Below the pieces are notes generated by a model. That model was not told the DNA's origin. It searched no databases and was given only the letters and a program-made list of their open reading frames with translations. From positions 768,887 through 832,886 of the forward strand of contig JADKIY010000001.1 in NCBI GenBank assembly GCA_016722575.1: a stretch of DNA of 64,000 nucleotides, written 5' to 3'. Position 1 is the first letter of the stretch. Each line of letters begins with the position of its first letter. Of the stretch, positions 31,801-48,358 are shown in pieces. The DNA is from Elusimicrobiota bacterium. Lineage in GTDB: Bacteria > Elusimicrobiota > Elusimicrobia > FEN-1173. The position numbers and the translations under genes are program-made.

Positions 31801-34800
31801 CCGGAGAGCCAACGCCCAACGATCGCGGAGGGACGCGGGGGCCGGTTCGGCCTCCCAGCGGCCCGTTCGGGTGACGCCCGGGAGGGGCGGCTTAAAGCGA
31901 TAAACCGACCGGTGGGAAAAGCCGAAGGCCAGGTTGACCAGGGCGAAGAGGCCCGTGGCGGCAAAGAAGGCGTGGTCGATGTGAAAGCCCACCGCGGAAC
32001 CCAGGGCGCTCAGGAGTCCCACGGCGGCGTAGAAGAAGACCCCCGTAACGACGGTTTCGACGAGGGGGGCTTTTTCGTTGATAATGCGGTTCAAATCCGC
32101 CGGGTTGGCGGGATTGAGTCCGTAAAGCCGGCCAATCAGGGGAACCAACCCCGAAATCGTCGCCGCCGGAGGCCCCCGGGGCGCCCCGGTGGACGTGGGG
32201 GCCAAGGTCCCGTTGGCGGACTGTTCGTCCAAGAGGACGACGTCGTTGCCAACGATGGATAGAGAGAATTGGTTGCGGGAAATGCCGCTGGTCGGGCCGA
32301 CGCCCAGGTCCTCCCGGCCGAATTGAAGGGTTGCGCCGGTCCGTCGATGGCCGTTCGGGAGAAGCAGAGACAATCCCCCTTCGGGGGTCGACTCCAGCAC
32401 TAGGTGGACGCCATTGACGACGAGGGGCACGGGCAGATGTTTTCGGGGGATGTTGACGGCCCCCGCGTTTTGGGACGGGCCGCCCAGGAGTGCCGTTGCC
32501 CGGACGTTCCTCCAGGCGTCAACGAGGGCGGTCAGATACTCGGCGGAGAAGGCTTCGATTCGCCCCGGGGTTTGATTGCGTTGGAGGGAAGAGACGGTCT
32601 GCTCGAGGGCATACACCTCATCGGACAACGGTTCGTTGGCCAATGGCCGGCCGAGCGCCGCCAAGTGGTCGTTCAAACGAGTGTCCAAGTGAAGCCGGAC
32701 GGTCCGCATTTGGGCCAGGTCGTCTCCCAGCTCCAAGTTCCCGGAATCTCCCCGGCGCAGGGTCCCGGCGGCCGACACACGCTGCCCCGCTTCGTCCCGA
32801 ATATCCGAAAGGGTGTAGCGGGCCGATCTCCCGCCCTCCGAGGCTTCGATGTCCACGGCCACGGCAAAGGCGGCGGCGTTTTGGATGTCGCTTAGGACGA
32901 CCGCCCCGTCTTGGGGGACGACGCGAATTTTGTCGCCTTTAATGTAAACGTCCAGGGGGATCCGAAGGGCGCGGCCCTGGGCCAAGATTCCCAAATCCCC
33001 CCGGACCGAGGCCAGAAGGGTCGATTCCAATCGTTCCCGGCCGGAATTTCCCTCTTCAGCGGGGCTCACGTCCACCGTGGTGTTGTTGGGTGAAAAGTTT
33101 TCCACCGTGGCTTCGCTGCCCGACCAGGCCAGGGCGGCGTGTTTGCGGGAAACTTCCACGCCGCTCAACCGGAGCGTGCGTCCCTCGGCGGCGGTTTGGC
33201 GGCCCAGAGTCAAGGATTCCCCGGGTTGAAGGACTTCCCGGCCTTCGGGGCCGGTGGCGATCAATCGGTTTCCCTCGAGCGAGAGGGAAACGCGGTTTCC
33301 GCTCAACACCAGGACCGAGGGGAAAGTGCCCAGCCGGCGGGGCCCCGACGTTGGCGTGAGAATCGTGTTCCCCGTGATGGCGGGGACGACCGGCGCGACC
33401 GGGGTCTCGACGACGGGTTCCGCCGGCCGGGTGATCCGCAGGGCGTTGTTCAGGAAGAAGTCGGCCGTTCCCTGCCGTTCGTTGGTGACGCCGAAATCGA
33501 AGTAGGCTTCCGGGATGACGTTCCAGGTTTTTTTAACGGTCTCATTGTTGAATTCCGCCGCGCCGTCCCCCGGCTGAAAACGGGCGCGTCCCGCGGAGGC
33601 GGGGGCCAAAATCACGCCGGGGGTGAGGCGGGCGAGCTGTTCCCAGGCGGCCTTCCAAACGGGACTCAAATCGTAGCCCGAGGCGTTGTAGTCGCCGAAA
33701 ACGAGAACGCCCTGATCGGTCATCACCAGCACCACGTTGGCGATCATGGCCCCGGTGGCTTCGTCGTAGGCCATGGCGAAGGCGGAGTTGGATTCCAGGG
33801 CGTGGGCCACGGGCATTTCCTGGTGGCCGCCCCCGAAGGGATTGAAGCACCCCGGAACCCGGTGCCCGGCGGCCACTTCGTCCAGGAGGCTTTTCTGGAT
33901 TTTCACCGAGACCCGGGCCCGGGCGTCGTCTTTTAGTTTCTGCGTGGCCAAGAGGGACCGGAGGGCGATGAGGATTTCGTTGAAGTGGAGTTGAATTTGG
34001 AGGAACCGTTCCTCGGGGTTTTCCACGCCGTCCCGGGAGAGGCGGTCGATGGCCTCGTCCCGTTGGCCGAGGATCCGCTCGTTCACGAATTGTTCGGCGG
34101 CGGCGTAGGTGTCCAGGGCGTCGGCCGTTTGCGCGGCTTCGGCCGCCTTGACCAGTCCCAGGGATCGGGCGATCTGGACCAACTGTTCGGTTTGCCTCTG
34201 AACCTGGACAATCCGTTCCTGGGCCGACAGCGGGGCCACGTCCTGGGCCGGGACGACGATTCCCCGGTCCCACAACGCGGGGGAATAGCCCGCCGCCAGA
34301 AGCGCGGCCTTGGCCTCGCCGTTGCCGGGGATTTGGGCGAGGTTGTGCGCCGCGGCGGCGGCGTTCGCCGCCTCGGCCGTCCCACCGTTGCGGAGCGTCT
34401 CCAGCCAGGTCGTGACGGCCGACTTCAGCCGGTCCGCCAACCCCGCCGTTTCCCCGGTCGGGGCGCGCTCCGGCCGCAACGACGTGGTCAAGGACGTGGC
34501 CACGATCAGTTGCGTCAATTGCCGCTGGTCCAGCTTCTCCAAAATGGGAGCGTTTTCCTCGCCGAAAACCTCCAGAACCGCCTGCCGCTCGGCGGCGGCG
34601 ACGACCGCCTCGACCGTCCTAGCCAGATTTTTCGGTCGGAGCGACCCGCCGGCGAAAGCGGCCGCCAAGGCGCGCATGGCTTCCAGGGAAGGTTCGAGTT
34701 TTTCCCGGGAATTGGCTTCCGCGTGAAGTTTAAGAAGCAGACTCCAACGGTAAAAGGTTTCGATCAAACGGTAATAGTCGATGGCCGGGTCGGTGCGTCG

Positions 34801-37800
34801 AAGGAATTCGAAAAACGGATCCCTTTCGCTCCAATAGGGAAGGCCCGCCAGGGCCTCGTCCAACAGTCCCACGCTGGGAACGCGGTTTTTCTCCGCCAGG
34901 AACATCAATAAATCCAGGGAAGCCGCGGGGCCGATGTGGCGGGAAAGGGCCCCGTCCACGTGATTGATGAGATGACCCTCTTCCGGCACGCTCCATCGCT
35001 CGGCGATTCCCCGAAGCCGCTCGGCCAGGGCCGCCATGCGCTCGGGGCGGGCCGTTGAGCTTCCGGTGTTCCGTGCCGTCGTGGCCAGGGCCCGGGCGGC
35101 AAAACCCATGAAGGATCCCTCGCTGGAGCGGATTTTTCTCGGATCGACTCGGACGCCGAGGGTTCCCAGCAAAGCGATTTCCTCCGGGGACAGGGCGCCA
35201 AGGTGTTTCAGGTCGTCGCTGGGAATGTTCAGGGCCCGCAAGGTTTTGGTCCGCTCGAAGGCCTGGACGAAGGCCGGGGCCTGGGCCAGGGGGCCTTTGA
35301 GCGGGCGATCCCGGGTGTCCTCCCAGGGGCTGAACGCCGATTCCAGGGCTCTTTCCACTTCGCTCGACAAATTGAAGCGCGCGCTCTGACCGGCCACGGC
35401 CAAATCCGCCAACAAGGGTTTTTGAAGATCCGGGTAGACCAACCCGAGCAGCAACAGGCCCACCGCGGCCTTTTCCTCCGTTTGGTATCGGGAGGGTTTA
35501 TCCCCTTCAAAGAGCAGTTCGGAAAGACCGGTAAAAAATTCCAGAGGCGCCGTTTCACTTTCGCGGCCCACGGGGGATCGGGCCAGCAATTCCAGGAAGT
35601 GGACCTTGGTGAGGCCGAAAATCATGCCCTCGTTTTCCCGTACAAATTGCGATTTGAGAACCCGCTCGATGGCCGCCGCGCTTTCCCCGGGGTCGGGGGA
35701 GGACAGCAGTCGGTTGCCGAGGGTGTTTTGAATCGTTTGTGATTTTGTCTGATCGAAAACCTCCCCCAGGAGGAAGGAGATTTTCCAGAGAGTCTGGGCG
35801 TCCGGTCCCTCGGTCAACAATTTGGGGGAGTCCGCCACGCGCTGGAAATAGAGTTGACGGAATTCCCGGTGGAGGCGTTGTAGGTCGGCGGGGGCGGACA
35901 GAAGAGCCTGGGTGGCGGCGCCGAAATCGGCCCCCTCTTTAACCAGAACGTGTCCCGCGAGGGCGATCATGGCCCGCTCGGACCGGTCGTAGGCGTCCAT
36001 GCGGTCGAAAAATTCACCGAGTCGAACCAGCGCCTCCGGATTGGATATCGCGTGGTGGACGATCCTCTCGGCCATGACCTCCCCGGGGACGGGCACGTCT
36101 TGGGTGGAAGTTCCCGCGCCTTGGCGGGCCATGTTCAGAAGCCGGTTCAAGGCCAGGGCCAGTTCGGGCTTTTCGTTCAGCCGTTGGTCGGGGGCCAGAA
36201 GGCGATCGAGTCCGGCGAGGGCCGTGGGCGAGGTGAATTTTCCGTACCTTCGGAGATTGGACAGGCCGGCCAGGTGGTCTTCCGTTGATCCCGTCAAAAA
36301 GGCGCCACCGCCGCGGCGTTGGGCCCAGTTGACCCCCGCGTGGCCCAAAACGCCTACCGCAAAGCCCCCGACGACGGGACCGAGAACGGAAGACGAGACC
36401 CCCGCCAGTTCTTGCAAACCTTGAAGGGGCGCGGCCCAGAAATGGGATGTTCCGAGGGAAAGAAGCGTGTTTCCCAATTCCCGAACGAGGAGGGGAAGGT
36501 TTTGAATGATTTCGGTTGGGCCGAAGGCGGCAAAGGAGGGGACAAAGGCGCCTGTCAAAAAGACCGTGACGGCCAAGGACGCGACTCCGAAAGCCGTGAA
36601 CAGGGAAAAGATGCCAAGTCGATCGAGGGGGGTGGCTTCGCGTTGTTGAAGAGCTCCGTCTTTCCCGTAGTAGTAGACCTGTTTGTGCGTTGCCAACGTG
36701 ATTTTGGCCGCGACGACCAAGGCGGCGGTCAGGGACCAAGCGGGAGAACCCGCCAGGAGAAGAATGGGGTAAACGTACAGGAGAAACCGGGCGTTCTCGC
36801 CGAAGGGGGCGGACCATAAAACCGTGCGGGCGGGATCGGTGCGCATCGATCCGGCGTAGTTCCCGGAGAAAAGCGGCCGACGCGCCAAGTCGCTCAAAGC
36901 GGAGCGGGCGCGGACCACGACCGATTCGGTCAGAGCGCCGGGGAGGGCCGCCGCACGGGCGAATAAGCCCGACATTCGGGAGGCCAAACCGCCGACCAAA
37001 GCGCCGAAGGCGGCCACGACCGATCCCGTTCTCCGAACCATGTCCACGGCGTGGCCGTTGCCCAGATCGACGTGGCGGTCGGCGGCCCCGTGGACGTTGT
37101 CGCAGGGCTCCAGGGCCTCGGCGGCCGATACGGATACCGCGCGGACGCCGTTTTGCAGGACTTCCTGGGCGCCGTGAATAAACCGGGGGGTTTCGCCCGT
37201 CGCGTCGGCCAGGGCGATGGGGTGGGAAAGATAAATGCGGTCGCCGGCGACCAATTTTTCCAGGGGAACGGGGTCGTGGGCCAGGATGTCCAGGTAATCG
37301 CTCTCGCCGGGGACGTCCGTGATTTTAGGCGTGACCACGACGTAGGAAATTTGTTTTTGCCGGAGAAGGCCGGTCAATCCCTCGGTGTGGAAGCCGCCGG
37401 CCACGAGCACGCCGGTGGTGGTGCCTTTTTCGGCCATTTTAGCCAGGAGGTTGGCCACCAGGGCGTCGTTTCGACGGACGGCGTAGGAGCAGAAATCCTC
37501 AAAGGGCTTGAGCGTTTCAACCGTCAGGGACGGGAGCCGGGCCACCGTCGGATCCAGGGCCGCCAGGCGGTCCCGAAGGGCCAGAATCTCGGGCCGGCGC
37601 TTTTCGTAGGCCACCCAGTCGGGCATGGCCATTTCGTGCCGGAGCATTTTTTCCAACAGGGCCAGGTCCCGGGCGATGTTCATTAAGGCGGTTTCGGCGG
37701 GGGTTTTGGCCAGGGAATTTTGGGCGGCGATTTCCAACTGGTCCAGTTCGGCCACGAGCTCGTTGCGGCTGATCTTCTCCGCCAGCAGGACGTAGGTGAT

Positions 37801-39099
37801 GTAGCTGGAGAGTTGGCCGAAATCGTCCAGGCGAATTTTGTTGTCGGCGCAGACCTGGCGCAGGTGGCGGTGGTAGTCGCCGTAGCCCATCCGGCCCGTG
37901 CGGTAATCGATGCTTCGGGCCACCAAGTCCTGGAGGGCCGGTTTCGACAGGCGGCGGACCAAAACTTCCACCAGGCGTTGGCGCTCGGTTTCCACGGCCT
38001 TGAAATCGAGGTTTTCCTCCCAATCCAGGGCGTTCAGCATCAGGCGGACGTTGGGAATGTCCAGGCGCCCGTCCCGGCCGCCGGGGGTTTTGACCAGGGC
38101 CCGGACGTAGTCGCCCAACTTTTCCCGCTGGGCCTTGTAGGCTTCAAAATGCCGGTCGAAGTTCTTGAGGCCTTCGGAGAAGGTTTTTTTCTTTTCCTGG
38201 TCGGCGACGGCCCGCAGGGTGGCCAGGGTGGCGAGGAGGGTGGTTTTGGTCTTGAAAGCGGTTTTGAGGGCTTTGACGTTCCCTTCGTAGAGGGCCGAGT
38301 CTTCCGCGCCGTAGAAGGCCGGGGCCTGGGGCAGGGTGAGTCCGGCGTACTCGGGCCCCGCGATCAGGCCTTTAATCAAAAGGAAATCGGCGATGTCTTT
38401 GGTGATGGACGAATCGGGGTAGGTGCGGTAGGGGTCCAGGGTGAAGGAGCCCGAGGCGCCTTCCAGTCCCACCAGGTTGACCCGGCGTTCCTGCATGAGC
38501 GCCCCGAGCATGGCGGAGATGTTTCGCTGGGCTTCCTCGATGCCGTGGGCGTCTTGGATGTGAACGACCACCGGGGCGTTGGCTTTGGGGGAGAGGTAGA
38601 CGTCCCGCACCCAGCCGTAGGGCGTGACCAGCTTGCCCAGCCAGTCCTGGGGGGCCGTTTTGGTGGGGGGGATCTTGGCCAATTCTCCGGGGGTGGAGGA
38701 AATGGCGGATCCGCCGGCCGAGCCCAGGTCCATCCGGACCGCCTGGGGGATTTGGGACAAGAGCATGTTGCCCTCTTGCCCCAGGTCGATCCCCTCGGAT
38801 TCCGGCGGCTGCATTTTGCGCGCCGCGACCCGACGAGCGCTCCAAAAGTTTTGCTCCTGGGCGTAGACGCCGAGGACGTTGCAGAAAAAGAAGGAGGCCG
38901 CCAAGGCGCCGCCCAGGGCGGACCGAAGGCCCGCCGAAGGTCGGAGGAGCCGTCGCTCCTTTGGAGCGCCGACTGTCCCCGGAGCTCCGCGAAGGGGGCG
39001 GAGGAGCCGTCGCTCCTTTGGAGCGCCGACTGTCCCCGGAGCTCCGCGAAGGGGGCGGAGGGACGGGAGAAAGCGAAGTAAGGCTTTGGTTTTCGTCAT
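28777..39099 (-). CDS. Giant-locus ORF1: 3440-aa multidomain membrane protein (signal/TM, possible TraB/GumN-like domain, TM block, long helical regions, 2x FHA, 2x four-TM His-rich module)
   Basis: Uninterrupted 10.3-kb frame with protein-like composition throughout. FHA signatures are LTLGRQ...VSRKHAALAWSG...NFSPNNTTVD and LQFGRED...ISRNQFSLS...LLDEQSANGT. Modules ATI[PS]GLVPLI...IDH[SA]FF...FGFSHRS...H.VHN are at ~31645-32165 and ~29350-29910. VHIQDAHG and VLVAGGFHTEGL resemble TraB/GumN family motifs (weak). Confidence 0.7.
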   Translation of the reverse strand: MTKTKALLRFLPSLRPLRGAPGTVGAPKERRLLRPLRGAPGTVGAPKERRLLRPSAGLRSALGGALAASFFFCNVLGVYAQEQNFWSARRVAARKMQPPESEGIDLGQEGNMLLSQIPQAVRMDLGSAGGSAISSTPGELAKIPPTKTAPQDWLGKLVTPYGWVRDVYLSPKANAPVVVHIQDAHGIEEAQRNISAMLGALMQERRVNLVGLEGASGSFTLDPYRTYPDSSITKDIADFLLIKGLIAGPEYAGLTLPQAPAFYGAEDSALYEGNVKALKTAFKTKTTLLATLATLRAVADQEKKKTFSEGLKNFDRHFEAYKAQREKLGDYVRALVKTPGGRDGRLDIPNVRLMLNALDWEENLDFKAVETERQRLVEVLVRRLSKPALQDLVARSIDYRTGRMGYGDYHRHLRQVCADNKIRLDDFGQLSSYITYVLLAEKISRNELVAELDQLEIAAQNSLAKTPAETALMNIARDLALLEKMLRHEMAMPDWVAYEKRRPEILALRDRLAALDPTVARLPSLTVETLKPFEDFCSYAVRRNDALVANLLAKMAEKGTTTGVLVAGGFHTEGLTGLLRQKQISYVVVTPKITDVPGESDYLDILAHDPVPLEKLVAGDRIYLSHPIALADATGETPRFIHGAQEVLQNGVRAVSVSAAEALEPCDNVHGAADRHVDLGNGHAVDMVRRTGSVVAAFGALVGGLASRMSGLFARAAALPGALTESVVVRARSALSDLARRPLFSGNYAGSMRTDPARTVLWSAPFGENARFLLYVYPILLLAGSPAWSLTAALVVAAKITLATHKQVYYYGKDGALQQREATPLDRLGIFSLFTAFGVASLAVTVFLTGAFVPSFAAFGPTEIIQNLPLLVRELGNTLLSLGTSHFWAAPLQGLQELAGVSSSVLGPVVGGFAVGVLGHAGVNWAQRRGGGAFLTGSTEDHLAGLSNLRRYGKFTSPTALAGLDRLLAPDQRLNEKPELALALNRLLNMARQGAGTSTQDVPVPGEVMAERIVHHAISNPEALVRLGEFFDRMDAYDRSERAMIALAGHVLVKEGADFGAATQALLSAPADLQRLHREFRQLYFQRVADSPKLLTEGPDAQTLWKISFLLGEVFDQTKSQTIQNTLGNRLLSSPDPGESAAAIERVLKSQFVRENEGMIFGLTKVHFLELLARSPVGRESETAPLEFFTGLSELLFEGDKPSRYQTEEKAAVGLLLLGLVYPDLQKPLLADLAVAGQSARFNLSSEVERALESAFSPWEDTRDRPLKGPLAQAPAFVQAFERTKTLRALNIPSDDLKHLGALSPEEIALLGTLGVRVDPRKIRSSEGSFMGFAARALATTARNTGSSTARPERMAALAERLRGIAERWSVPEEGHLINHVDGALSRHIGPAASLDLLMFLAEKNRVPSVGLLDEALAGLPYWSERDPFFEFLRRTDPAIDYYRLIETFYRWSLLLKLHAEANSREKLEPSLEAMRALAAAFAGGSLRPKNLARTVEAVVAAAERQAVLEVFGEENAPILEKLDQRQLTQLIVATSLTTSLRPERAPTGETAGLADRLKSAVTTWLETLRNGGTAEAANAAAAAHNLAQIPGNGEAKAALLAAGYSPALWDRGIVVPAQDVAPLSAQERIVQVQRQTEQLVQIARSLGLVKAAEAAQTADALDTYAAAEQFVNERILGQRDEAIDRLSRDGVENPEERFLQIQLHFNEILIALRSLLATQKLKDDARARVSVKIQKSLLDEVAAGHRVPGCFNPFGGGHQEMPVAHALESNSAFAMAYDEATGAMIANVVLVMTDQGVLVFGDYNASGYDLSPVWKAAWEQLARLTPGVILAPASAGRARFQPGDGAAEFNNETVKKTWNVIPEAYFDFGVTNERQGTADFFLNNALRITRPAEPVVETPVAPVVPAITGNTILTPTSGPRRLGTFPSVLVLSGNRVSLSLEGNRLIATGPEGREVLQPGESLTLGRQTAAEGRTLRLSGVEVSRKHAALAWSGSEATVENFSPNNTTVDVSPAEEGNSGRERLESTLLASVRGDLGILAQGRALRIPLDVYIKGDKIRVVPQDGAVVLSDIQNAAAFAVAVDIEASEGGRSARYTLSDIRDEAGQRVSAAGTLRRGDSGNLELGDDLAQMRTVRLHLDTRLNDHLAALGRPLANEPLSDEVYALEQTVSSLQRNQTPGRIEAFSAEYLTALVDAWRNVRATALLGGPSQNAGAVNIPRKHLPVPLVVNGVHLVLESTPEGGLSLLLPNGHRRTGATLQFGREDLGVGPTSGISRNQFSLSIVGNDVVLLDEQSANGTLAPTSTGAPRGPPAATISGLVPLIGRLYGLNPANPADLNRIINEKAPLVETVVTGVFFYAAVGLLSALGSAVGFHIDHAFFAATGLFALVNLAFGFSHRSVYRFKPPLPGVTRTGRWEAEPAPASLRDRWALALRGAAIHTPLLLAFMDPLGGLFLAPLGALTSVAFHVVHNQLAARFGWTAATAANGDQGPPSNAKRLVKMSLADFLQEYAKEDFFRPGYFGYNAPAIRARLDEWFGPSGWSIKHVINDQIVDESRAYEFYEEGYYQYFKSHPDELDRLVKMARDVYDTAPSNVASGGDYTKQGDTPARHLQDIAIRNVVKRLGRAFEGTELIQVRGRGTPGEQWAPGNIPIHDASLIRQPEMRNWWKAGSIESFFQSTKIIVLTPHPVAQSLFANHQRFFGKERLFQLKDLAALPWALDADQFPKDAEGRPRVFTDNEINQILSGWLMLMGGSNQVNRDSFLHAREELRQLLAPDVVTRDQEAVDSHVAFAPYVVARLQETGQVPIFLARDALSINEFRRYTDQLNDQTSAAAVVYHPGIFTPVGPNRRNDDKELSQIIKSIKNIMDESFREIVAEGLFPFDQLGIKSAAVREGIEEKFKQKTAALIEGDALFADYANQIYRQFRSSGLPMTRSFVVVDTYGSGKSALFVKSVIEYFATRERGRESTPFKVDVLLGRSNHVSLSQPELSDIYAVDTREKAFLDLYWPFQYAAVHNANSHFPMFGVKTNPTKLLSLAYQSLTLYNQAVRFGRGEIPILKTGAAPNVHRDRGPPATIPGLVPLIARLYRLNPNSPEDLNKIVTEKAPFVESALFGLFYFGAMVLMSNLDVIVSGFLGVPVSLNPTIFNQYSLFALANLAFGALHARVYTYRDGQWEVESNPDGTPKFASWGTRLSLAVRGMAIHSPLLWTNLFPLLGPLVTILGAATSVVLHIVHNELASHFGWRAMTAGGPASSSAGAFRRFAIAGRYATQPGEKPADTARRLADLSTTAGEILTKVDKGTAAMLIRRILEVPLSSTDLTDQFDIAYVAEGKDVRNSQRKPVPSRPARGELDALKSIGGHGTPRFGLADFIETPDGKEQIQWYVEEFVEGQTLHEIKAHGRMDPGLARQTVKTLFDIARHWEGPGLKERPSQLGNDRRPHR
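32180..32420 (-). other. FHA domain 2 within giant ORF1
   Basis: ...LQFGREDLGVGPTSGISRNQFSLSIVGNDVVLLDEQSANGTLAP carries the G-R...S-R/H...N-G-T FHA signature. Confidence 0.6.
33060..33330 (-). other. FHA domain 1 within giant ORF1
   Basis: ...LTLGRQTAAEGRTLRLSGVEVSRKHAALAWSGSEATVENFSPNNTTVD carries the same FHA signature. Confidence 0.6.
38944..39057. repeat. 57-bp in-frame tandem duplication near the 5' end of giant ORF1
   Basis: gaggagccgtcgctcctttggagcgccgactgtccccggagctccgcgaagggggcg x2, with a partial copy upstream. Encodes LRPLRGAPGTVGAPKERRL x2, just before the predicted signal/TM segment. Confidence 0.8.
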
Positions 39100-39213: not shown

Positions 39214-39558
39214 TTAAACGCCGAAGGATTCGCCGCAGGAGCAGGTGGCGGTGGCGTTGGGGTTCTTGAAGAGAAATCGGCGGGAAAACATCTTGTCTTC
39301 GTAGTCCAGGGTGGTGCCGGCCAGGTAAAGCAGACTTTTTTTGTCCACATAAACCGTGACGCCGTGGGCGTCCACCCGGTGGTCGGTTTGGGGGGCGGGG
39401 CCCACCAGGGGTTCCAGGGAGTAACTGAACCCCGAGCAGCCGCCCGCCGTGACTTTCACCCGCAGGGCCTCGGCGCCTTGGCCTTTTTCGGCCAAAAGCT
39501 TTTTGGCGCGCTGGGCGGCGCGTTCGGTTACGTCAAAGAGGGCTTGGGTTTCGATCAC
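39214..39558 (-). CDS. HesB/IscA-family Fe-S cluster insertion protein
   Basis: ...VTAGGCSGFSY...C-terminal TCSCGESFGV (Cys-x-Cys motif). GTG start. Confidence 0.85.
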   Translation of the reverse strand: MIETQALFDVTERAAQRAKKLLAEKGQGAEALRVKVTAGGCSGFSYSLEPLVGPAPQTDHRVDAHGVTVYVDKKSLLYLAGTTLDYEDKMFSRRFLFKNPNATATCSCGESFGV

Positions 39559-39882
39559 TTAGGCGTCGAAGGATTTGCCGCAGCCGCAGCTTTTTTTGGC
39601 GTTGGGGTTGGAGATGGCGAAGCCGCCGCCGGAGAAATCCTCTTTGTAGTCGATGACGGCGCCCGCCAAAAGCGCGGCGCTCGGCTCGTCGATCACCAGG
39701 TTCAGTCCGCTCAAATCCAGGGCGGTGTCCCCGTCTTTTTTGTCGTCGAAGGTGAACCCGTATTGGTAGCTGGAGCAGCCGCCTTTTTCGACGTAGACGC
39801 GCAGGGCTTTGCCGGCGAGTCCCTTGTCGTTGGCGTAAAATTCCTTGACCTTTTCCACCGCGTTCGGGGTCATTGTGAGCAT
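39559..39882 (-). CDS. HesB/IscA-family Fe-S cluster insertion protein (tandem paralog)
   Basis: ...VEKGGCSSYQY...C-terminal SCGCGKSFDA. Directly abuts the downstream paralog. Confidence 0.85.
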   Translation of the reverse strand: MLTMTPNAVEKVKEFYANDKGLAGKALRVYVEKGGCSSYQYGFTFDDKKDGDTALDLSGLNLVIDEPSAALLAGAVIDYKEDFSGGGFAISNPNAKKSCGCGKSFDA

Positions 39883-39934
39883 GGTTCCTCCGGGATTCTT
39901 GATTTCGATCTAATTATGCCAAAAAAGTCATATA

Positions 39935-39963
39935 TTGTCAACGACGGAAAAGAGCGGTATAAT
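39935..39963 (+). promoter_or_regulatory. Near-consensus promoter TTGTCA-N17-TATAAT placed so the def mRNA would be leaderless
   Basis: TTGTCA at 39935-39940 and a perfect TATAAT at 39958-39963. The def ATG at 39970 is only 6 nt after the -10. No SD sequence. Confidence 0.45.
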
Positions 39964-39969
39964 ACTTCC

Positions 39970-40500
39970 ATGTCCACCGCCGCCGAGTCCCCGACCCTGT
40001 TGGAAATCCGCAAATTCGGGGACCCCGTGCTTCAACGCCCCGCCAAGCCCGTCGAAAAAATCGACGAAAAGCTTTTGCGCCTCGTCGCCGCCATGTTCCG
40101 CACCATGTACGCGGAGCCGGGCATTGGCTTAGCCGCGCCTCAGGTGGGCGTCTCCCTTCGCCTGATGGTGCTGGACGTGGCCCCCGAAGGCCAAAGCCGG
40201 CCCCTGGCCCTTCTCAATCCGGTCTTTTTGGAAAAGAAGGGGAAGATTCGTTCCGAGGAAGGATGCCTTTCTTTTCCGGGAATCCAAGTGACGGTGCCCC
40301 GGGCGGCCCGGGTCAAGGTGTCGGGCATCAACGAACGCGGCCTGCCCGTGACCGTCGAGGCCGAAGGCCTCTTGTCCCGCTGCCTTCAGCACGAAATGGA
40401 CCATTTGGACGGGGTCGTCATGATCGACCGCCTCCGTCTTCCCCAGAGGCTCAAGGTCCTCTGGGACATTCGCCAGCGTAAAAAAGCCGGGCTCTGGTAG
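39970..40500 (+). CDS. def: Peptide deformylase
   Basis: GIGLAAPQVG, EGCLSFPG and HEMDHLDG are the three PDF motifs. The six-frame ORF from 39364 is an antisense extension over the iscA genes. Confidence 0.9.
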   Translation: MSTAAESPTLLEIRKFGDPVLQRPAKPVEKIDEKLLRLVAAMFRTMYAEPGIGLAAPQVGVSLRLMVLDVAPEGQSRPLALLNPVFLEKKGKIRSEEGCLSFPGIQVTVPRAARVKVSGINERGLPVTVEAEGLLSRCLQHEMDHLDGVVMIDRLRLPQRLKVLWDIRQRKKAGLW

Positions 40501-40516
40501 CCCCCAAGGACCTCCC

Positions 40517-40852
40517 GTGACCGAACCCGCCGCTCCGCCCTCCGCGCTTTTAAAGATGGTTCGCGCTTCCCGCCATCTCATCACCGCCGTGTGCGTCGTT
40601 TTGGTTTTTGTCACCATCGTTTCTCTTTTCCGAAACGCTCTGGCCCCCTCCGGTTCCTGGCGACTCCTGGCCGAAAGCGGCCAGGTGTTCCTCCCCGCCG
40701 TTTTTCTTTTCGTCCTTTTCAATAATCTCGCCCACCGTTACCCGGTCAGCGAGGCGGCCAAGGCCCGTTTAAAAACGGCTTCCCGGGTTTGTCTCGGCCT
40801 GGCGGTCCTGGGGTTTGTGATGGGTTACCTGTATCTCCGGCGTTCCGCCTGA
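40517..40852 (+). CDS. Small hypothetical membrane protein (2-3 TM)
   Basis: 111-aa ORF filling the def-fmt gap. Two strongly hydrophobic helices. Confidence 0.4.
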   Translation: MTEPAAPPSALLKMVRASRHLITAVCVVLVFVTIVSLFRNALAPSGSWRLLAESGQVFLPAVFLFVLFNNLAHRYPVSEAAKARLKTASRVCLGLAVLGFVMGYLYLRRSA

Positions 40853-40855
40853 GAA

Positions 40856-41785
40856 TTGATGCTTAAATCGGTTTTCTTCGGCACCCCGTCGGTGGCGGTG
40901 CCTTTTTTAGAGCGGTTGGCCAAAACCACCCGCGTGGTCGGCGTGGTGACGAGTCCCGACAAACCCGCCGGCCGCGGCTATCAACTGGCGGCCCCCCCGG
41001 TCAAAATCGCCGCCGAAAAACTGGGCCTCCCCGTCCACCAACCCCCTTCCCTGAAGACTTTTTCCCTTCGGGCCGCCCTGGGCGAAACGCCCGACCTGGG
41101 CATCGTCGTGGCCTACGGCCACCTGATCCCTTCGGCGGTCTTCGACGCCCCGCGGTTCGGCCTGGTCAACGCGCATTTTTCCCTGGTGCCCCGTTACCGC
41201 GGGGCGGGGCCCATGCAATGGGCCCTCATCCGGGGGGAAACCGAAACCGGGGTTTCCCTGTTCCGCATCGACCAGGGGCTGGACACGGGCCCCGTGTTCC
41301 TCCAACGGGCCGCCCCCATTCTTCCGTCGGACAACGCCGCCACCCTCCGGGAACGATTGGTGGCCCTGGGCGTCGAACTTCAAGACGAGCTGATCCGTAA
41401 GTTAGAGGCGGGCCCCTTTGAACCGACGCCCCAGTCCGGCGAGGTCAGCCAGGCGCCCCTCCTAAAGAAGGAAGACGGCGAAATTTTCTGGGACCGGTAC
41501 ACCGCCGACCAGGTGGCCAATCTCGTTCGTGGAACCTACGAATGGCCCGGGGCTTTCGCTCGAATGAAGGGCCAGCGGATTAAAATCCGCGCGGCGGAAC
41601 CCCGGTCCGGCGGCAACGGCCGCCCCGGCGAAGTGATCGCCGTCGAGAAGGGGCGCGGATTTTTGGTAAAATGCCTGTCGGACAGCGTCCGGGTGACCCG
41701 GGTTCAGCCCGACGGGAAAAAGGAAATGGACGCGGAAAGCTTTTGGAACGGCGCGCGCCTTTCCGTCGGCGACACGTTCGAATAA
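40856..41785 (+). CDS. fmt: Methionyl-tRNA formyltransferase
   Basis: FFGTPS.AVP.L..L......VVGVVT.PDKP.GRG; ...NAHFSLVPRYRGAGP is the formyltransferase core. Confidence 0.9.
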   Translation: MMLKSVFFGTPSVAVPFLERLAKTTRVVGVVTSPDKPAGRGYQLAAPPVKIAAEKLGLPVHQPPSLKTFSLRAALGETPDLGIVVAYGHLIPSAVFDAPRFGLVNAHFSLVPRYRGAGPMQWALIRGETETGVSLFRIDQGLDTGPVFLQRAAPILPSDNAATLRERLVALGVELQDELIRKLEAGPFEPTPQSGEVSQAPLLKKEDGEIFWDRYTADQVANLVRGTYEWPGAFARMKGQRIKIRAAEPRSGGNGRPGEVIAVEKGRGFLVKCLSDSVRVTRVQPDGKKEMDAESFWNGARLSVGDTFE

Positions 41786-41800
41786 CGGAGGAATGATTTT

Positions 41801-42688
41801 ATGGGTTTTATGAGACGCATCGTTTTGTTCATGGCCGTCAACCTGTTGGTAGTGGTGACGATTTCCATCGTCCTGCAACTCTTGGGGGTCCACGGTTACA
41901 TGACCGCCCGGGGGTTGGATTACCAGGCGCTCATGTTTTTCTGTCTGATTTGGGGCATGCTCGGCGCTCTGATTTCCCTGGCGTTGTCCCGGATCATGGC
42001 CAAATGGATGATGGGCGTCCGGGTCATCGATCCGGCCCAGGCCACCGGCGACGCCGCCTGGCTCGTTCAAACGGTGCACACCCTGGCCCGGGCCGCGGAC
42101 CTGCCCGAAATGCCCGAGGTCGGCATCTACGCCAGCCCCGAATTGAACGCCTTCGCCACGGGCCCGACGAAAAGCCGCGCCCTGGTGGCGGTGTCGGCGG
42201 GTCTTCTGGGGTCCATGGACCGGCGGCAGGTGGAAGGCGTTCTCGGCCACGAAATCACCCACATTTCCAACGGGGACATGGTGACCATGACCTTGATCCA
42301 GGGGGTGGTCAACGCCTTCGTCATGTTCTTCTCCCGGGTGATCGGTTTCCTCGTCAGCCAGCAGGTGAAGGAGGAAGCCCGCCGAAGCATTCAATTCCTG
42401 GTCACCATCGTCACGCAGATCCTTTTCAGTCTTCTGGGCATGGTGGTGGTCGCCTCCTTCTCCCGGTGGCGCGAATACCGCGCCGATGCGGGCGGGGCGC
42501 GCTTGGCCGGCCGGGAAAAAATGATCGCCGCCTTGGAAGCCCTGGGTCAATCCCGCGCTCCCATCGACACCCGGCAGGCCTCCGTGGCCGCCTTGAAAAT
42601 TTCCGGCCGGCGGGGCCTTTTGGCCCTGTTGTCCACGCACCCGCCCCTGGAAGACCGCATCGCGCGCCTGAAACGGGCGGACTACTGA
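41801..42688 (+). CDS. htpX: Zinc metalloprotease HtpX (M48 family)
   Basis: Four TM segments; HEITHISNGD (HExxH); typical HtpX length and layout. RBS GGAGGA. Confidence 0.9.
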   Translation: MGFMRRIVLFMAVNLLVVVTISIVLQLLGVHGYMTARGLDYQALMFFCLIWGMLGALISLALSRIMAKWMMGVRVIDPAQATGDAAWLVQTVHTLARAADLPEMPEVGIYASPELNAFATGPTKSRALVAVSAGLLGSMDRRQVEGVLGHEITHISNGDMVTMTLIQGVVNAFVMFFSRVIGFLVSQQVKEEARRSIQFLVTIVTQILFSLLGMVVVASFSRWREYRADAGGARLAGREKMIAALEALGQSRAPIDTRQASVAALKISGRRGLLALLSTHPPLEDRIARLKRADY

Positions 42689-42725
42689 TCCCCGCGCTCC
42701 GCCGACCTCGGCGGACCGCCCGTCC

Positions 42726-43790
42726 ATGACCGAATCCCCTTCGGCGCTTCTCGATATTCCCTTCGACCGGTGGACCGCCGCCCTCGGCCTCGAGGGCGCC
42801 AACCTTTTTCGCGCCCGCCAGGTGCAGACCTGGGTGTTCGAAAAGCGTGCCGCCTCCTTTTCCGAAATGACGGATTTGCCCGCCGATCTTCGCACGCGCT
42901 GGGAATCCGCTTTTCGCCTTCGCACGGCCTCCTTCCTCCGTCAGGACACCTCCGCCGAAGACGGCACCGCCCGCCTTTTTTTTAAGGCGGCCGACGGCCG
43001 GGATTTCTCGACCGTTTACCTCCCCGCTCGGAAGGAAACCGAGGACCGGGCCTCCTTGTGCCTGTCCACCCAGGTCGGTTGCGCCTGGGGGTGCGTGTTT
43101 TGCGCCTCGGGCCGGGTGGCCTACGAGCGAAACCTCACCCCGTCGGAAATCCTGGAGCAGATCTTCGGCGCCGAAAAAGCCACGGGCCGCCGGGCCCAAA
43201 GCCTGCTTTTTATGGGCATGGGCGAACCCCTGGCCAATTTGGACAATTTGCGGGTGGCCCTGGCCGCCATTCGTTCGCCCCTGGGCCTCAACATCGGCGC
43301 CCGACACGTGACGGTGTCCACCTCGGGGCTCGTGCCGGCGATCCGGAAACTGGCCCAGGAAGGGCCCCGGGTCAACCTGGCCATCAGCCTTCACGCCGCC
43401 GACGACGAAACCCGGCGGAAGGTCCTGCCCAAAAGTTCGGCCTGGACCATTAAAGACCTCTTGAGCGCCGCCTGGGATTACCAGAAACTGGCCGGCGGCG
43501 GCGGGCGCGTGACCTTTGAATACATCCTTCTGGCCGGGATCAACGATTCCATCCGGGAGGCCCAACGCTTGTCCAACCTCTTGCGGGGGAAAAAGGCCTG
43601 GGTCAACTTGATCGCCTACAACCCCGTGGCGGGCCTCCCCTACAAGCGTCCCGACGACGAAACGGTCCGCGCCTTCGGCAAAGTGCTGGAGGACCGGGGC
43701 CTCTTCGTTCGATTGCGAAAACCCCAGGGGACCGATATCGAGGCGGGTTGCGGCCAATTGGGCCGCCCCCGAACCCTTCCGGCGGTTTGA
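42726..43790 (+). CDS. rlmN: 23S rRNA/tRNA adenine C2-methyltransferase RlmN (radical SAM)
   Basis: CLSTQVGCAWGCVFCASG (CxxxCxxC) and the conserved C-terminal region. Confidence 0.9.
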   Translation: MTESPSALLDIPFDRWTAALGLEGANLFRARQVQTWVFEKRAASFSEMTDLPADLRTRWESAFRLRTASFLRQDTSAEDGTARLFFKAADGRDFSTVYLPARKETEDRASLCLSTQVGCAWGCVFCASGRVAYERNLTPSEILEQIFGAEKATGRRAQSLLFMGMGEPLANLDNLRVALAAIRSPLGLNIGARHVTVSTSGLVPAIRKLAQEGPRVNLAISLHAADDETRRKVLPKSSAWTIKDLLSAAWDYQKLAGGGGRVTFEYILLAGINDSIREAQRLSNLLRGKKAWVNLIAYNPVAGLPYKRPDDETVRAFGKVLEDRGLFVRLRKPQGTDIEAGCGQLGRPRTLPAV

Positions 43791-43842
43791 AAGGCCCCCC
43801 CGGTCGATATGGTAAGATGAGTTTTCTGTTTAATTCCAAACC

Positions 43843-44874
43843 ATGACCGACCCCACTTCCTATTCCAACAACCCCTCGGCCGGCCGTCTGGAGGCCCTCG
43901 CGAGCCGCGTCGGCCCCTCGGCGGAGGCCATTCGGCGCCACCCCTGGGCCTTTTTGGCCGCCGCTTTTCTGGCCGCCGCGATTTCCACCGCCTTGGCCAC
44001 CTATTGGATCATCGGGGGATTGATTCACAGCCGCCAGGCCGTCACCGTGCCGGACTTGACGGGCAAAAACCTGGAAACGGCCTTGGACCTTCTGGGGCCC
44101 CTTCGTTTGTCCCTGGCCAAAGACGCCGTCCAAATCGACGAAAATTTTCCGCCCGGCGCCATCCTGCGCCAGGTGCCTCCCGCGGGCATTAAAGTCCGGG
44201 AGGGGAAAGTGGTCCACGTCACGCTTTCCTCCGGTGGCCAAGTGCTCTTCGTCCCCGAATTGACCGGCACGACGTTGACGGAGGCCCAGAACCGTCTCCG
44301 CTCCGCGGGGCTCGTGCTCGGGGCCATGTCCCAGGCCTATTCGACGCAAAGAGAAGCCGGGTGGGTCATGGAGCAATCCCCGCCCATCGGGGCCGTCATC
44401 AAGCCCGGGTCCATGGTGGATTTGAAGGTGTCCAAGGGACCGCCCCCCGAAGGCACCACCCTCATGCCGGATTTCATCAACCGGCCATTCGGGTTGGCGC
44501 GCCAATGGGCCAAAGACGCGGGCGTGGAAGTGAAATCGACGGAGGAATTGTCGCCCACCCTGCCCGGACTCGTGTTGAATCAGACCCCCGCGCCGGACAC
44601 GCCGCTCGCCGAAAAGGCGGCCGTGACGTTCGTGGTGGCCAAGTCGAGCTCGACCGCCGCGGCCGACGTGAAGTTGATCCGCTACGAGATTCCCCCTGGA
44701 ACCGAGCGCGTGCAGGTGCGCATCGTGCTGCGGGACGACGACGGGGAAAAAGAGGTTTACCAGTCCCAGCAGAACGCGGGGTCCGCGGTGGAAGTCGCCG
44801 TGGCGCCCAAGGGCGCCGCCCGGGCCCGTATTTTCGTCGACGGCGTGTTGATCGAAGAACGCCCCCTGCCGTAA
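43843..44874 (+). CDS. PASTA-domain protein with no kinase domain (TM anchor + three PASTA repeats + C-terminal beta-rich domain)
   Basis: TM helix (WAFLAAAFLAAAISTALATYWIIG) then three units of ..VPDLTG.....A...L........, the PASTA pattern. No Ser/Thr kinase catalytic motifs. Confidence 0.8.
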   Translation: MTDPTSYSNNPSAGRLEALASRVGPSAEAIRRHPWAFLAAAFLAAAISTALATYWIIGGLIHSRQAVTVPDLTGKNLETALDLLGPLRLSLAKDAVQIDENFPPGAILRQVPPAGIKVREGKVVHVTLSSGGQVLFVPELTGTTLTEAQNRLRSAGLVLGAMSQAYSTQREAGWVMEQSPPIGAVIKPGSMVDLKVSKGPPPEGTTLMPDFINRPFGLARQWAKDAGVEVKSTEELSPTLPGLVLNQTPAPDTPLAEKAAVTFVVAKSSSTAAADVKLIRYEIPPGTERVQVRIVLRDDDGEKEVYQSQQNAGSAVEVAVAPKGAARARIFVDGVLIEERPLP

Positions 44875-45557
44875 TGCCCCGCCCGCCGTTCCCCGCTCTG
44901 GCCCCGTCCATCCTCTCGGCCGATTTCGCCCATCTGGCCGACGACGTTCGCACGGTGGAAAAGGCCGGCGCCGACTGGCTGCACGTCGACGTCATGGACG
45001 GCCATTTCGTGCCCAATTTGACCATCGGTCCCGTGGTCGTGCATTGGCTGAAGAAATGCACCCAACTCCCCCTGGACGTTCACCTGATGATCGAACACCC
45101 GGAAAAATACATCCCCGCCTTCGCCCAGGCCGGGGCCTGGAACATTACGGTCCATCGGGAAGCCTGCCGTCGCCCCGCCGAGGTTTTGCGCCTCATTAAA
45201 AAGCACGGGTGCCGGGCGGGGATGTCCGTCCGCCCGAAGACCCCCATTCGGGAGGTTGCCCCCTACTTGAAAAATTTGGACGTGGTCCTGGTCATGACCG
45301 TGGAGCCCGGCTTCGGCGGACAGTCCTTCATGCCGGACATGTTGCCGAAAGTCCGCTGGCTTCGGGAGCATTGGCGCGGGAAACGGAAAGAAGGCCCCTG
45401 GATCGAAGTGGACGGGGGCATCAACGCCGACACCGCGCCTTTGACCGTGCACGCCGGCGCCAACGTGTTGGTGGCCGGCAACGCCATTTTCGGCGCCCCG
45501 AACCCGGGCCGCGCTCTTCAAAACATCCGCCGCCGGGCCGCCGCGCCCGTCCTTTGA
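44875..45557 (+). CDS. rpe: Ribulose-phosphate 3-epimerase
   Basis: LAPSILSADFA...HVDVMDGHFVPN...MTVEPGFGGQ.F....L.KV matches Rpe. ATG overlaps the upstream stop. The six-frame ORF from 44361 is an upstream extension. Confidence 0.9.
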
Positions 45558-46333: not shown

Positions 46334-48358
46334 CTACCGTTGGACGGCCAGCCTCCCCCGCTGGATCTCACCGCCCGCCTCCACCACGAAATAATACACC
46401 CCCGACCCGACGGGACGTCCGTCGTCCCCCAGCAGGTCCCATTGGGCGGGGCCCCCCTCCACCCGGATTTCCCGAACGCGGTTCCCCGAAACCCCGTAGA
46501 CGCGGATCACGCTTCGGTCGGGCACGTTTCGGAAAAGCATGGGAAGGCCGCCGTGGTCGCCTCCGCGCCAGGGGTTTGGAAAGGCGTCGGCGACGTTCCG
46601 CGGTTCCCCGGGAACGGTGAGCGTCGCGAAGACCCCCTGGCTGAGATTCGTGTAGGAACCGGTGGGTGTGGTTTCCAATTTCAAGGCGCGGACCATATAC
46701 GTGTACGTGTGCCCGGCCTGGGCCCCGTTGTCCCGCCAGCGATGGGCGGCGGTTCCGCCCTCGGGCGTCAGCCGGGCGAAAGGCCCCCGGGGGGTGTCGC
46801 CCCGGAAGACGGCGTATCCCGAAACGGCCGCGTCCGACGAGGGCGTCCAGGTCACCGACCACCGGCCGTCGCTCCGATCGCCCCCCGCGTCGGCGGGGGG
46901 GGCGACCGTGTTCGCTCGAAGAGTGGGATCCCCCAACAACGCCACGTGGATTTGGCCGTGGCCGACGTCCGGGGCGTTTTGGGAAAATCGCGCGCTTTCG
47001 CCCAGGGTTTCCCCCAGGGACATGGCGTGGAATTGCCAATTGGGACGGCCCGGCCAGGCCGACGCCAATCCGTACGAGGGCGTGGCCAAGGGCGCCCGAA
47101 GAAAATTGTTGGCGTTGTCCCAGTCGCCGAAGTAGCTCCCGAACAAAAGGGTAAAAACGGTTTTGGGATCGCCCACGGCGAACCCCGCCGTCGTGGTCCC
47201 CACCCCGCTCGCGCTTTGGTAGGTCCCGCCGCCGCAGGCGTAGGTCCACAGATAGGCGTCGCTGGCCAGGGTGGGGAAATATTGATCCGTCCCGACGGCG
47301 GTGATGGACGCGGTGCCCAGGAGGGCGGTGAAGTTGCGCCACCCGTTGGCGGCGAAGGCTTCGCCGCCGAAAACGCCGAACCCGTCGCGGATCAGGCCCC
47401 GTTGGGGCACGGCGGCAAACACCCCGCGGTGGTGGCGGTAATCGTGGTCCTTGTTGAGATAGCCCCGAAGGAGCTCGGTTTCGGTGTGCGGGAAGGCCGG
47501 CAGATTGGAAAGGTCCACGCGCCCGACGCCCAGTTCGACGGCGTCGCCGGACCCGTCGGCCGGCACGATCGTTTGGTCGAATTTCCCGTCCCCGGGCCGG
47601 TTCGTTAACCGGGCGTTGCCGGGCTGGACATAGTTGGCCGTTGCGTCCGTCCAGAGGCCGTCCACGTCCCCGTAATACACGTCCGCCGGCCAGGCGCCCA
47701 GGTGGTTGGAATGTCCGTCGGGGTTGATCGCCCCGGCGTAAGGGATGGGCGCCCGGCCGAACAGAAAGACCTCTTTGACGTGCGAGGGGTCCGCCGTGTA
47801 ATCCTCGACAATCAGGGCCTTCACCTGCCGTTGGAGGGCCCCCGAGGAGGCGAAGGCATCGTCCCGGGGGACGTCGTGGCGGATCACCTTCCACCCATCG
47901 CCGATCAAGTCCTCTTCCAGCCGCGCCAGTTCGCTCGACAGGGGGGACGCCTGGGTTTGGTCAACCACCAGGAGAACGGTCCCGCGGTGTTCCACGGGGG
48001 GAAGGTCGAACCCCGCTCGGGCTTCGCCGTATCGGTTGTAGAGGTCGGTTTCAATCGTGTAATCGTAGACGGTTCCCTCCGGGGCGTTGTCGTCCACGAA
48101 CTGCGTGGCGCTCCCGGCGAGGGTGGCGATGGACGGGCCGCGCCCCGTCCCGCTGGTTTGGCGGCGAACGTTGTAACTGCCGGGAGCGGCCGTGGGAGTC
48201 GGCCAGGAAAGGGTGATCTGGCGGGGGCCGGTGCGCCGCGCGGTGACCTGGACGGCGTAGTCCCGGGTGGTGAGCGCCTCCGCGGGCGTCGCGGTCCCCC
48301 AAAGAAACAGGGCAAGGACCGAAAGCGGGCGTAAAAAGGCGGGGGCCGGTGATTCCAT
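46334..48358 (-). CDS. Secreted protein with FN3-like domains and a T9SS-type C-terminal sorting domain
   Basis: Signal peptide (LSVLALFLWGTATPAEA). C-terminal ...FPNPWRGGDHGGLPMLFRNVPDRSVIRVYGVSGNRVREIRVEGG...GSGVYYFVVEAGGEIQRGRLAVQR parallels the CTD of the 1407-2929 protein. Confidence 0.7.
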   Translation of the reverse strand: MESPAPAFLRPLSVLALFLWGTATPAEALTTRDYAVQVTARRTGPRQITLSWPTPTAAPGSYNVRRQTSGTGRGPSIATLAGSATQFVDDNAPEGTVYDYTIETDLYNRYGEARAGFDLPPVEHRGTVLLVVDQTQASPLSSELARLEEDLIGDGWKVIRHDVPRDDAFASSGALQRQVKALIVEDYTADPSHVKEVFLFGRAPIPYAGAINPDGHSNHLGAWPADVYYGDVDGLWTDATANYVQPGNARLTNRPGDGKFDQTIVPADGSGDAVELGVGRVDLSNLPAFPHTETELLRGYLNKDHDYRHHRGVFAAVPQRGLIRDGFGVFGGEAFAANGWRNFTALLGTASITAVGTDQYFPTLASDAYLWTYACGGGTYQSASGVGTTTAGFAVGDPKTVFTLLFGSYFGDWDNANNFLRAPLATPSYGLASAWPGRPNWQFHAMSLGETLGESARFSQNAPDVGHGQIHVALLGDPTLRANTVAPPADAGGDRSDGRWSVTWTPSSDAAVSGYAVFRGDTPRGPFARLTPEGGTAAHRWRDNGAQAGHTYTYMVRALKLETTPTGSYTNLSQGVFATLTVPGEPRNVADAFPNPWRGGDHGGLPMLFRNVPDRSVIRVYGVSGNRVREIRVEGGPAQWDLLGDDGRPVGSGVYYFVVEAGGEIQRGRLAVQR

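Follow-up and report, generated by a model that had tools for sequence, protein, structure and literature searches.

The window analysed here is a stretch of 64,000 nucleotides (64 kb) of DNA from an Elusimicrobiota bacterium. It contains an intact open reading frame on the forward strand (43843-44874) that codes for a PASTA protein of 343 amino acids. The gene belongs to a co-directional string, whose upstream part (39970..42688, +) is formed by def (39970-40500), an ORF for a hydrophobic membrane protein of 111 amino acids without Pfam match (40517-40852), fmt (40856-41785) and htpX (41801-42688). Next on the same strand are rlmN (42726-43790; TIGR00048, 331 bits), the PASTA gene and rpe, the gene for ribulose-phosphate 3-epimerase (44874-45557; TIGR01163, 275 bits); rpe is followed by a gene for a TPR/YfiO-like protein. 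An initial annotation of this DNA had given the order as def, fmt, htpX, rlmN, PASTA gene and rpe. Pfam and NCBIfam profiles, which also identified def, fmt and htpX, confirmed this order, with the 111-aa ORF between def and fmt as an addition. Among the loci examined, a counterpart of this ORF was found only in the closest relative (L009).

The start codon of the PASTA gene lies just 52 nt behind rlmN. At its 3′ end, the stop codon TAA (44872-44874) overlaps the ATG of rpe by one base, which reads as TAATG in the sequence (44872..44876, +). That the PASTA gene is so tightly linked to rpe seems to reflect an operon structure passed on by descent, and the linkage says nothing about function. 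A strong promoter-like site (TTGTCA-17-TATAAT, 39935-39963) lies 5′ of def. The region 39913-39963 holds two back-to-back promoter-like sites, each with 11 of 12 consensus positions, between def and divergent iscA-like genes on the reverse strand (39214-39882). On the other side of rpe, the reverse strand encodes a secreted-looking protein of 674 amino acids (46334-48358), for which weak matches to fn3, FlgD-Ig and Peptidase_C25 were obtained, all below the Pfam cut-offs.

The PASTA protein is composed of a short cytoplasmic tail, a single transmembrane helix, three PASTA repeats and a C-terminal beta-sandwich. Pfam detected the three repeats with an E-value of 1.1e-36. The sole NCBIfam match was to the extracellular half (positions 329-562/563) of NF033483, the model of the Stk1/PknB PASTA kinases, with a score of 113.4 bits that lies below the curated cut-off of 450. 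Hydropathy reaches its maximum at aa 34-58, with the residues RRH just before. In the AlphaFold model (mean pLDDT 83.6), the transmembrane helix comprises aa 34-62 (pLDDT 79-93), three alpha/beta PASTA units follow at aa 66-267, and a six-strand beta domain forms the C-terminal end (aa 277-342). The protein is an N-in bitopic inner-membrane protein, and everything after the helix, including the PASTA repeats, is extracytoplasmic. Cultured members of the Elusimicrobiota are diderm.

The individual parts were delimited as follows, all on the forward strand. The cytoplasmic N-terminal tail (aa 1-33; 43843..43941) was defined by the alignment of relatives; it is modelled with low confidence and carries the clade-specific motif RLxALAxRVGPS. 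Hydropathy, AlphaFold and conservation place the signal-anchor helix with its juxtamembrane end at aa 34-62 (43942..44028). PASTA repeat 1 (aa 66-134; 44038..44244) is membrane-proximal, contains a VREGK motif and was located by Pfam (PF03793), the model and conservation. Model and conservation also support repeat 2 (aa 135-203; 44245..44451), in which the best Pfam stretch lies (aa 137-198). For repeat 3 (aa 204-268; 44452..44646), we used Pfam, the model and the alignment to PASTA3 of S. aureus PrkC. Behind repeat 3 lies an Ig-like beta-sandwich of the PrkC/Stk1 subtype (aa 276-343; 44668..44871), which is homologous to the C-terminal domain of Stk1/PrkC-type kinases. These results match the architecture that had been read from the sequence at the outset, namely a membrane anchor, three PASTA repeats and a C-terminal domain with no kinase. 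The structure prediction that had been suggested for the C-terminal domain yielded a beta-sandwich that is closest in structure to the Ig-like domain of S. aureus PrkC. With PASTA repeats, a membrane anchor and no catalytic domain, the protein falls into the COG2815-type class.

Relation to the PrkC/Stk1 kinases

The initial annotation had stated that the protein has no kinase or phosphatase partner. A Hanks-kinase HMM was built from PASTA kinases and run on the six-frame ORFs of the 64-kb window, where it matched none. The PASTA protein itself has no Pkinase match in Pfam. In tblastn searches of the window, PP2C, RsgA, priA, DUF116, rsmB and kinase residues 1-360 (P0198) gave no match. From the complete Negativicutes cluster used as query (L093), def, fmt, rlmN, PrkC residues 361-648 and rpe were found in collinear order at window positions 40000-45530. 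Since the gap behind rlmN measures 52 nt, a hidden kinase would not fit there. An N-terminal Hanks-type Ser/Thr kinase domain is thus missing according to Pfam, the six-frame HMM, tblastn and the size of this gap. The last three of these also rule out a hidden kinase upstream or in another frame, which had been raised as an objection to the initial reading; within the window, the statement on missing partners stands.

The sequence homology reaches over the whole extracytoplasmic part. A family profile (alignment A1) covered the entire ectodomain of S. aureus PrkC (3PY9) with an E-value of 1.8e-33 (query 73-347 against chain 9-289); the same profile matched M. tuberculosis PknB more weakly (80 bits). 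In a Foldseek search with the full AlphaFold model, the top match was again 3PY9, over 288 columns, and matches to PASTA-bearing penicillin-binding proteins (PBPs) were much weaker (E-values of 1e-5 to 1e-3). By BLASTP, aa 31-342 of the window protein are collinear with aa 347-648 of a Stk1 kinase of the Phascolarctobacterium type (Negativicutes), with 27% identity and an E-value of 6e-29. This alignment extends from the basic residues ahead of the membrane helix through the last residue. Taken together with the matches of the C-terminal domain described below, the end-to-end collinearity identifies the PASTA protein, at the level of sequence, as PrkC minus its first ~346 residues.

We tested the C-terminal domain separately because a profile of this domain fails by sequence alone to reach the Ig-like domain of S. 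aureus (3PY9). A profile restricted to the C-terminal domain (A3, 72 positions) was used in a HMMER search over 1.84 billion protein representatives. At an E-value of 1e-3 or lower, 518 matches were obtained, most of which are PASTA-only proteins of about 315-340 amino acids. Among the 18 matches longer than 370 amino acids that were scanned with Pfam, 11 carry both Pkinase and PASTA, and in 15 of the 18 the domain sits at the extreme C-terminus. The named kinases among the matches include the 'Stk1 family PASTA domain-containing Ser/Thr kinase' of Phascolarctobacterium faecium as well as kinases of a Negativicutes bacterium and of Armatimonadetes. The link to the S. aureus domain is made by the modelled fold and by these intermediate kinases. 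Against a word-indexed database, the C-terminal-domain profile returned short gene fragments only. In the second-best match of A3 (P0101, 543 aa, E-value 1e-35), the domain is present in two stretches together with a DnaJ domain at the N-terminus, and PASTA repeats are missing; the Ig-like domain therefore also exists outside PASTA proteins.

The genomic position of the gene is also that of prkC. Two full-length kinases with this C-terminal domain sit between rlmN and rsgA-rpe. In the first locus (L093), the order is priA-def-fmt-DUF116-rsmB-rlmN-PP2C-PrkC-rsgA-rpe. The second (L095), whose kinase has the best-scoring kinase C-terminal domain against the Elusimicrobiota family, reads rsmB-rlmN-FhaA-FhaB-PP2C-(83 aa)-FtsW/RodA-bPBP-PrkC-rsgA-rpe-ribD. 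As these two reference loci demonstrate, rlmN is the upstream flank also of the prpC-prkC module in Firmicutes. The same gene order surrounds PrkC in B. subtilis (PMC8359813). The window holds this Firmicute-type slot, def-fmt-(rsmB)-rlmN-...-(rsgA)-rpe, without rsmB and rsgA. An Armatimonadetes kinase with the C-terminal domain lies in a different genomic context, outside the rlmN-rpe slot. In the word-indexed search, the nearest kinases (P0063, P0068) had unrelated surroundings that are uninformative on the slot. The second locus (L095:620-11419) is a hybrid string, in which the Firmicute-type slot is combined with an fhaA-fhaB-pstP-rodA-pbpA-pknB module of the actinobacterial type. In M. 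tuberculosis, the PknB locus has the order fhaA-fhaB-pstP-rodA-pbpA-pknA-pknB and lies away from rpe.

Distribution and constraint in Elusimicrobiota

Related loci were collected with one genome per GTDB species. All 80 loci retrieved belong to Elusimicrobiota, including Endomicrobiales and Elusimicrobiales, although the search pattern was family-specific and this figure says little about other phyla. The proteins are 30-93% identical to that of the window, and a fusion of PASTA to a kinase was found in 0 of the 80 loci. The gene directly 3′ of the PASTA gene is rpe in all 79 loci with enough downstream sequence (median projected gap -1 nt). On the upstream side the neighbours differ: most loci have fmt there, an Endomicrobia clade has ilvC, and rlmN is confined to the clade of the window. 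Gene calls in the relatives also confirm the context of the PASTA gene. Chance synteny, with PASTA-only genes at random places in relatives, had been considered as a possible objection and is ruled out by the constant position in these 80 loci. Together, the collinear ectodomain, the kinases found in the same slot and this constant position uphold the view of the initial annotation that a kinase-less PASTA protein stands in the place of prkC.

A kinase, PP2C or FHA gene adjoins the PASTA gene in a single one of the 80 loci (L038), and searches for PP2C and FHA in the other related loci were negative; a cognate phosphatase gene (prpC/stp) is likewise missing next to the PASTA gene in the window. 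At L038:3834-9696, genes for a CHASE2-TPR-Hanks kinase (855 aa), a PP2C and an FHA protein take the place of def-fmt and immediately precede the PASTA-only gene and rpe. Compared with the PrkC cluster of L095, identity amounts to 43% for the kinase domain and 39% for the PP2C. This set of genes could be a coincidence or a relic of an ancestral module.

Further loci deviate in other ways. A metagenome relative with 37% identity (P0052, loci L006/L007) has kept the PASTA-rpe pair, which is flanked there by a group of FtsX-like, M23 peptidase and large peptidase genes and by the mraZ-rsmH-PBP-murE-murF (dcw) cluster. In L046 (7053-8978), fmt and the PASTA gene share one frame with no intervening stop (660-codon stop-to-stop ORF), which is possibly a fmt-PASTA fusion or a sequencing error. 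A PASTA-only protein of 389 amino acids (P0071, L091:528-1697) is encoded on a contig that carries genes for Rpb4, ribosomal protein L21e, SRP54 and TFIIB and looks archaeal.

To assess selection, dN/dS was determined. A value of 0.06 was obtained for the window gene and its 93%-identical relative, with 0.03-0.11 for the individual domains and 0.03-0.10 in six other pairs; the cytoplasmic tail gave 0.11 against L009. Because these values are low (about 0.03-0.10), the gene is not decaying. The term remnant, which the initial annotation had offered, is hence valid in an evolutionary sense and fails as the description of a decaying gene, since purifying selection acts on it.

These data also bear on the reading that the gene is a non-functional remnant, or that an assembly or frameshift artefact hides a kinase. 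Frameshift-split PrkC genes do exist in metagenome contigs. At L092:471-4218, rsmB and PP2C are followed by a Pkinase ORF of 325 amino acids and a separate PASTA ORF of 325 amino acids in another frame. A frameshift or a sequencing error has broken this PrkC in two, which illustrates that 'PASTA-only' gene calls can be artefacts. The PASTA gene of the window is unlike this split gene. Its ORF is intact, with about 315-350 amino acids, in nearly all of roughly 80 independent genomes; the dN/dS range given above opposes a remnant, and the short gap behind rlmN and the absence of any six-frame kinase signal oppose an artefact. We regard this reading as already refuted and as almost certainly wrong.

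Conservation differs between the parts of the protein. PASTA1 and PASTA2 rank highest, followed by the C-terminal domain, PASTA3 and the transmembrane helix; the juxtamembrane segment is on a par with the C-terminal domain, which itself is missing in one sub-clade. A tryptophan at the helix end and juxtamembrane segment, then [VI]H-x-[RK] and then VPD are conserved phylum-wide (W55, H62 and R64 in the window protein). No such phylum-wide conservation is seen for the cytoplasmic tail. It measures about 35 amino acids with the RLxALAxRVGPS motif in the clade of the window, 23 amino acids (MGFKEFYQRHFSSSDEKIVSPGF) in a large clade, and 13 or fewer elsewhere.

The conserved tails of these two clades and the phylum-wide W, H and R/K at the membrane would fit a split PrkC or co-receptor, in which the PASTA protein senses wall fragments and signals via the membrane or its short tail to a separate Hanks kinase or other transducer. 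The gene order of L038, with CHASE2-TPR-Pkinase, PP2C and FHA ahead of the PASTA-only gene and rpe, points in the same direction. However, such genes adjoin in only this one locus, and its kinase has a CHASE2 sensor of its own. In addition, the tails vary between clades and are 13 amino acids or shorter in many members, and the 64-kb window contains no kinase, PP2C or RsgA. We consider this explanation unlikely, and the suggestion of the initial annotation that the protein signals through another partner is not favoured, given the varying and often short tails and the single occurrence of a kinase/PP2C/FHA module.

The opposite direction of evolution was considered as well. The kinase-less form might be ancestral, such that a PASTA membrane protein stood beside rpe first, a Hanks kinase was fused to it later and the Elusimicrobiota protein survives from before the fusion. 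It is in line with this that no Elusimicrobiota locus has a fused kinase, that the PASTA-rpe pair is an invariant core with varying genes upstream, and that the C-terminal domain is mobile and occurs without PASTA, as in the DnaJ protein with two copies (P0101). On the other hand, in Negativicutes and in a second lineage this slot is taken by full-length kinases whose ectodomain is the same, accompanied by PP2C and rsgA, and B. subtilis shares the gene order (PMC8359813). One truncation is simpler than repeated identical fusions, and the clade-variable N-terminal tails look like secondarily acquired starts. An ancestral kinase-less form therefore appears quite improbable.

A broader formulation combines the two preceding ideas. 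The protein might be one half of a PASTA signalling pair acting in trans, with the ectodomain sensing lipid II or muropeptides and the transmembrane and juxtamembrane segment switching an unlinked membrane partner, such as a kinase like that of the CHASE2-kinase/PP2C/FHA set in L038 or a SEDS-bPBP pair as in L095, or the protein might be the surviving pre-fusion ancestor of all PASTA kinases. We hold this to be decidedly doubtful; if true, it would show how PASTA sensing became coupled to, or uncoupled from, phosphorylation.

Proposed role of the PASTA protein

Domain architecture, homology and syntenic slot are observed here, as are the missing kinase, the retention throughout the phylum and the purifying selection. 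To explain them, we lean, with somewhat better than even confidence, towards a kinase-less orthologue of PrkC/Stk1 that works as a phosphorylation-independent periplasmic scaffold binding peptidoglycan or lipid II, for which we infer the ligand, the partners and the direction of evolution. The gene would originate from a prpC-prkC-rsgA module within the conserved def-fmt-(rsmB)-rlmN-...-rpe string. Anchor and ectodomain would have been kept, still joined to the transcription unit of rpe, after loss of the kinase domain, the phosphatase and rsgA. The periplasmic part corresponds to a complete PrkC ectodomain with three PASTA repeats and the terminal Ig-like domain. Its repeats may bind the stem peptide of un-crosslinked peptidoglycan, either in lipid II at the membrane surface or in muropeptides, and ligand binding would recruit the protein to the places where the wall is made. 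With no phosphorylation involved, it could serve there as a scaffold for proteins that build or cut the wall, or help to position them. Contacts to such partners would be made via the ectodomain and the conserved transmembrane/juxtamembrane segment.

Phylum-wide retention of a kinase-less form under selection argues for a selectable job of the ectodomain that needs no kinase. Since no cytoplasmic module is conserved across the phylum, a conserved cytoplasmic output is unlikely. The clade-variable tail, the constraint on the ectodomain and outer helix end, and the known docking roles of PASTA domains are the reasons why we prefer the scaffold. The high conservation of the membrane-proximal repeats would fit a ligand presented at the membrane surface. 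Precedents exist for the individual properties: PASTA4 of StkP docks the hydrolase LytB, a role of PASTA that is independent of the kinase (PMC10434722), the PASTA domains of PBP2B strengthen the binding to DivIB (PMC7654742), and the ectodomain of PknB binds lipid II (PMC6428115). Several observations count against the scaffold. The neighbours rpe, rlmN and fmt (ilvC in Endomicrobia) provide no hint of a cell-wall function, the conserved tails in two clades could be docking peptides, and in L038 the kinase, PP2C and FHA genes lie directly upstream of the PASTA gene.

Among known systems, Stk1/PknB of S. aureus (3PY9) and PrkC of B. subtilis (NF033483) are the most alike, with one transmembrane helix, three PASTA repeats and a terminal Ig-like domain that are collinear to the last residue, and with the same slot between rlmN and rpe. 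In contrast to both, the Elusimicrobiota protein lacks the Hanks kinase domain, the long juxtamembrane region, and an adjoining PP2C and rsgA/cpgA, and its host stands outside Firmicutes and Actinobacteria. PASTA kinases are usually described from these two phyla (10.1101/2023.06.12.544644). StkP of S. pneumoniae resembles the functional model proposed here, in that docking by its PASTA ectodomain is independent of catalysis (PMC10434722), but it differs by an active kinase, a fourth PASTA repeat and the lack of an Ig-like domain at the end. The PASTA repeats of M. tuberculosis PknB bind lipid II and muropeptides (PMC6428115) and are similar in sequence (80 bits, as above); PknB differs by four repeats, the missing Ig-like domain and the presence of the kinase. 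In class B PBPs (PBP2x, PBP2B, SpoVD and S. aureus PBP1), extracytoplasmic PASTA domains aid localisation and protein contacts (PMC7654742). These proteins possess transpeptidase and PBP dimerisation domains, for which the Elusimicrobiota protein has no Pfam match, and it is not a class B PBP by TIGR02214 either (15 bits against a cut-off of 688).

Relatives are already labelled 'PASTA domain-containing protein' or COG2815 by NCBI and JGI, and a COG2815 protein has been listed in Leptospira (PMC1664576). Such a label gives neither function nor orthology, and it omits the PrkC-type C-terminal domain, the slot and the retention across the phylum. Our literature searches on Elusimicrobia and PASTA, on kinase-less PASTA and on 'PASTA-only' returned nothing relevant, and no paper was found that reports such proteins from Elusimicrobiota or points out the orthology and the slot. 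The present data refine this label and extend the PrkC lineage past Firmicutes and Actinobacteria. PASTA kinases have been studied as sensors with phosphorylation as output, and the role of the ectodomain alone is still debated. By keeping the full PrkC ectodomain and anchor without a fused kinase, at the ancestral position and with strong purifying selection acting on the gene, the phylum offers a natural separation-of-function variant. The Elusimicrobiota PASTA protein is also a simple subject for tests of ligand binding and partner recruitment.

The initial annotation had further pointed to FHA and possible kinase-like elements in the giant locus of the window. An FHA match is present, although weak (23.3 bits, E-value 9e-5); kinase-like elements were not detected by the HMM. 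A connection of the PASTA protein to this locus was rejected, as the locus contains only this weak match and a RamC_N match in the next ORF, and no kinase. The giant genes lie on the reverse strand (23210-39099) and comprise ORFs of 3440 (28777-39099), 1058 (25629-28805) and 861 amino acids (23210-25795), which are almost annotation-free. In a related locus (L001), a gene for 2521 amino acids without Pfam matches lies upstream of def. The FHA match is located in the 3440-aa ORF, and the RamC_N match in the 1058-aa ORF around the motif GWKFHIS. A membrane module that starts with ATIPGLVPLIARVYGL..NPADLNRIVNEKAPLVE is repeated about four times across these two ORFs, and at the N-terminus of the 3440-aa ORF a tandem duplication of LRPLRGAPGTVGAPKERRL was observed.
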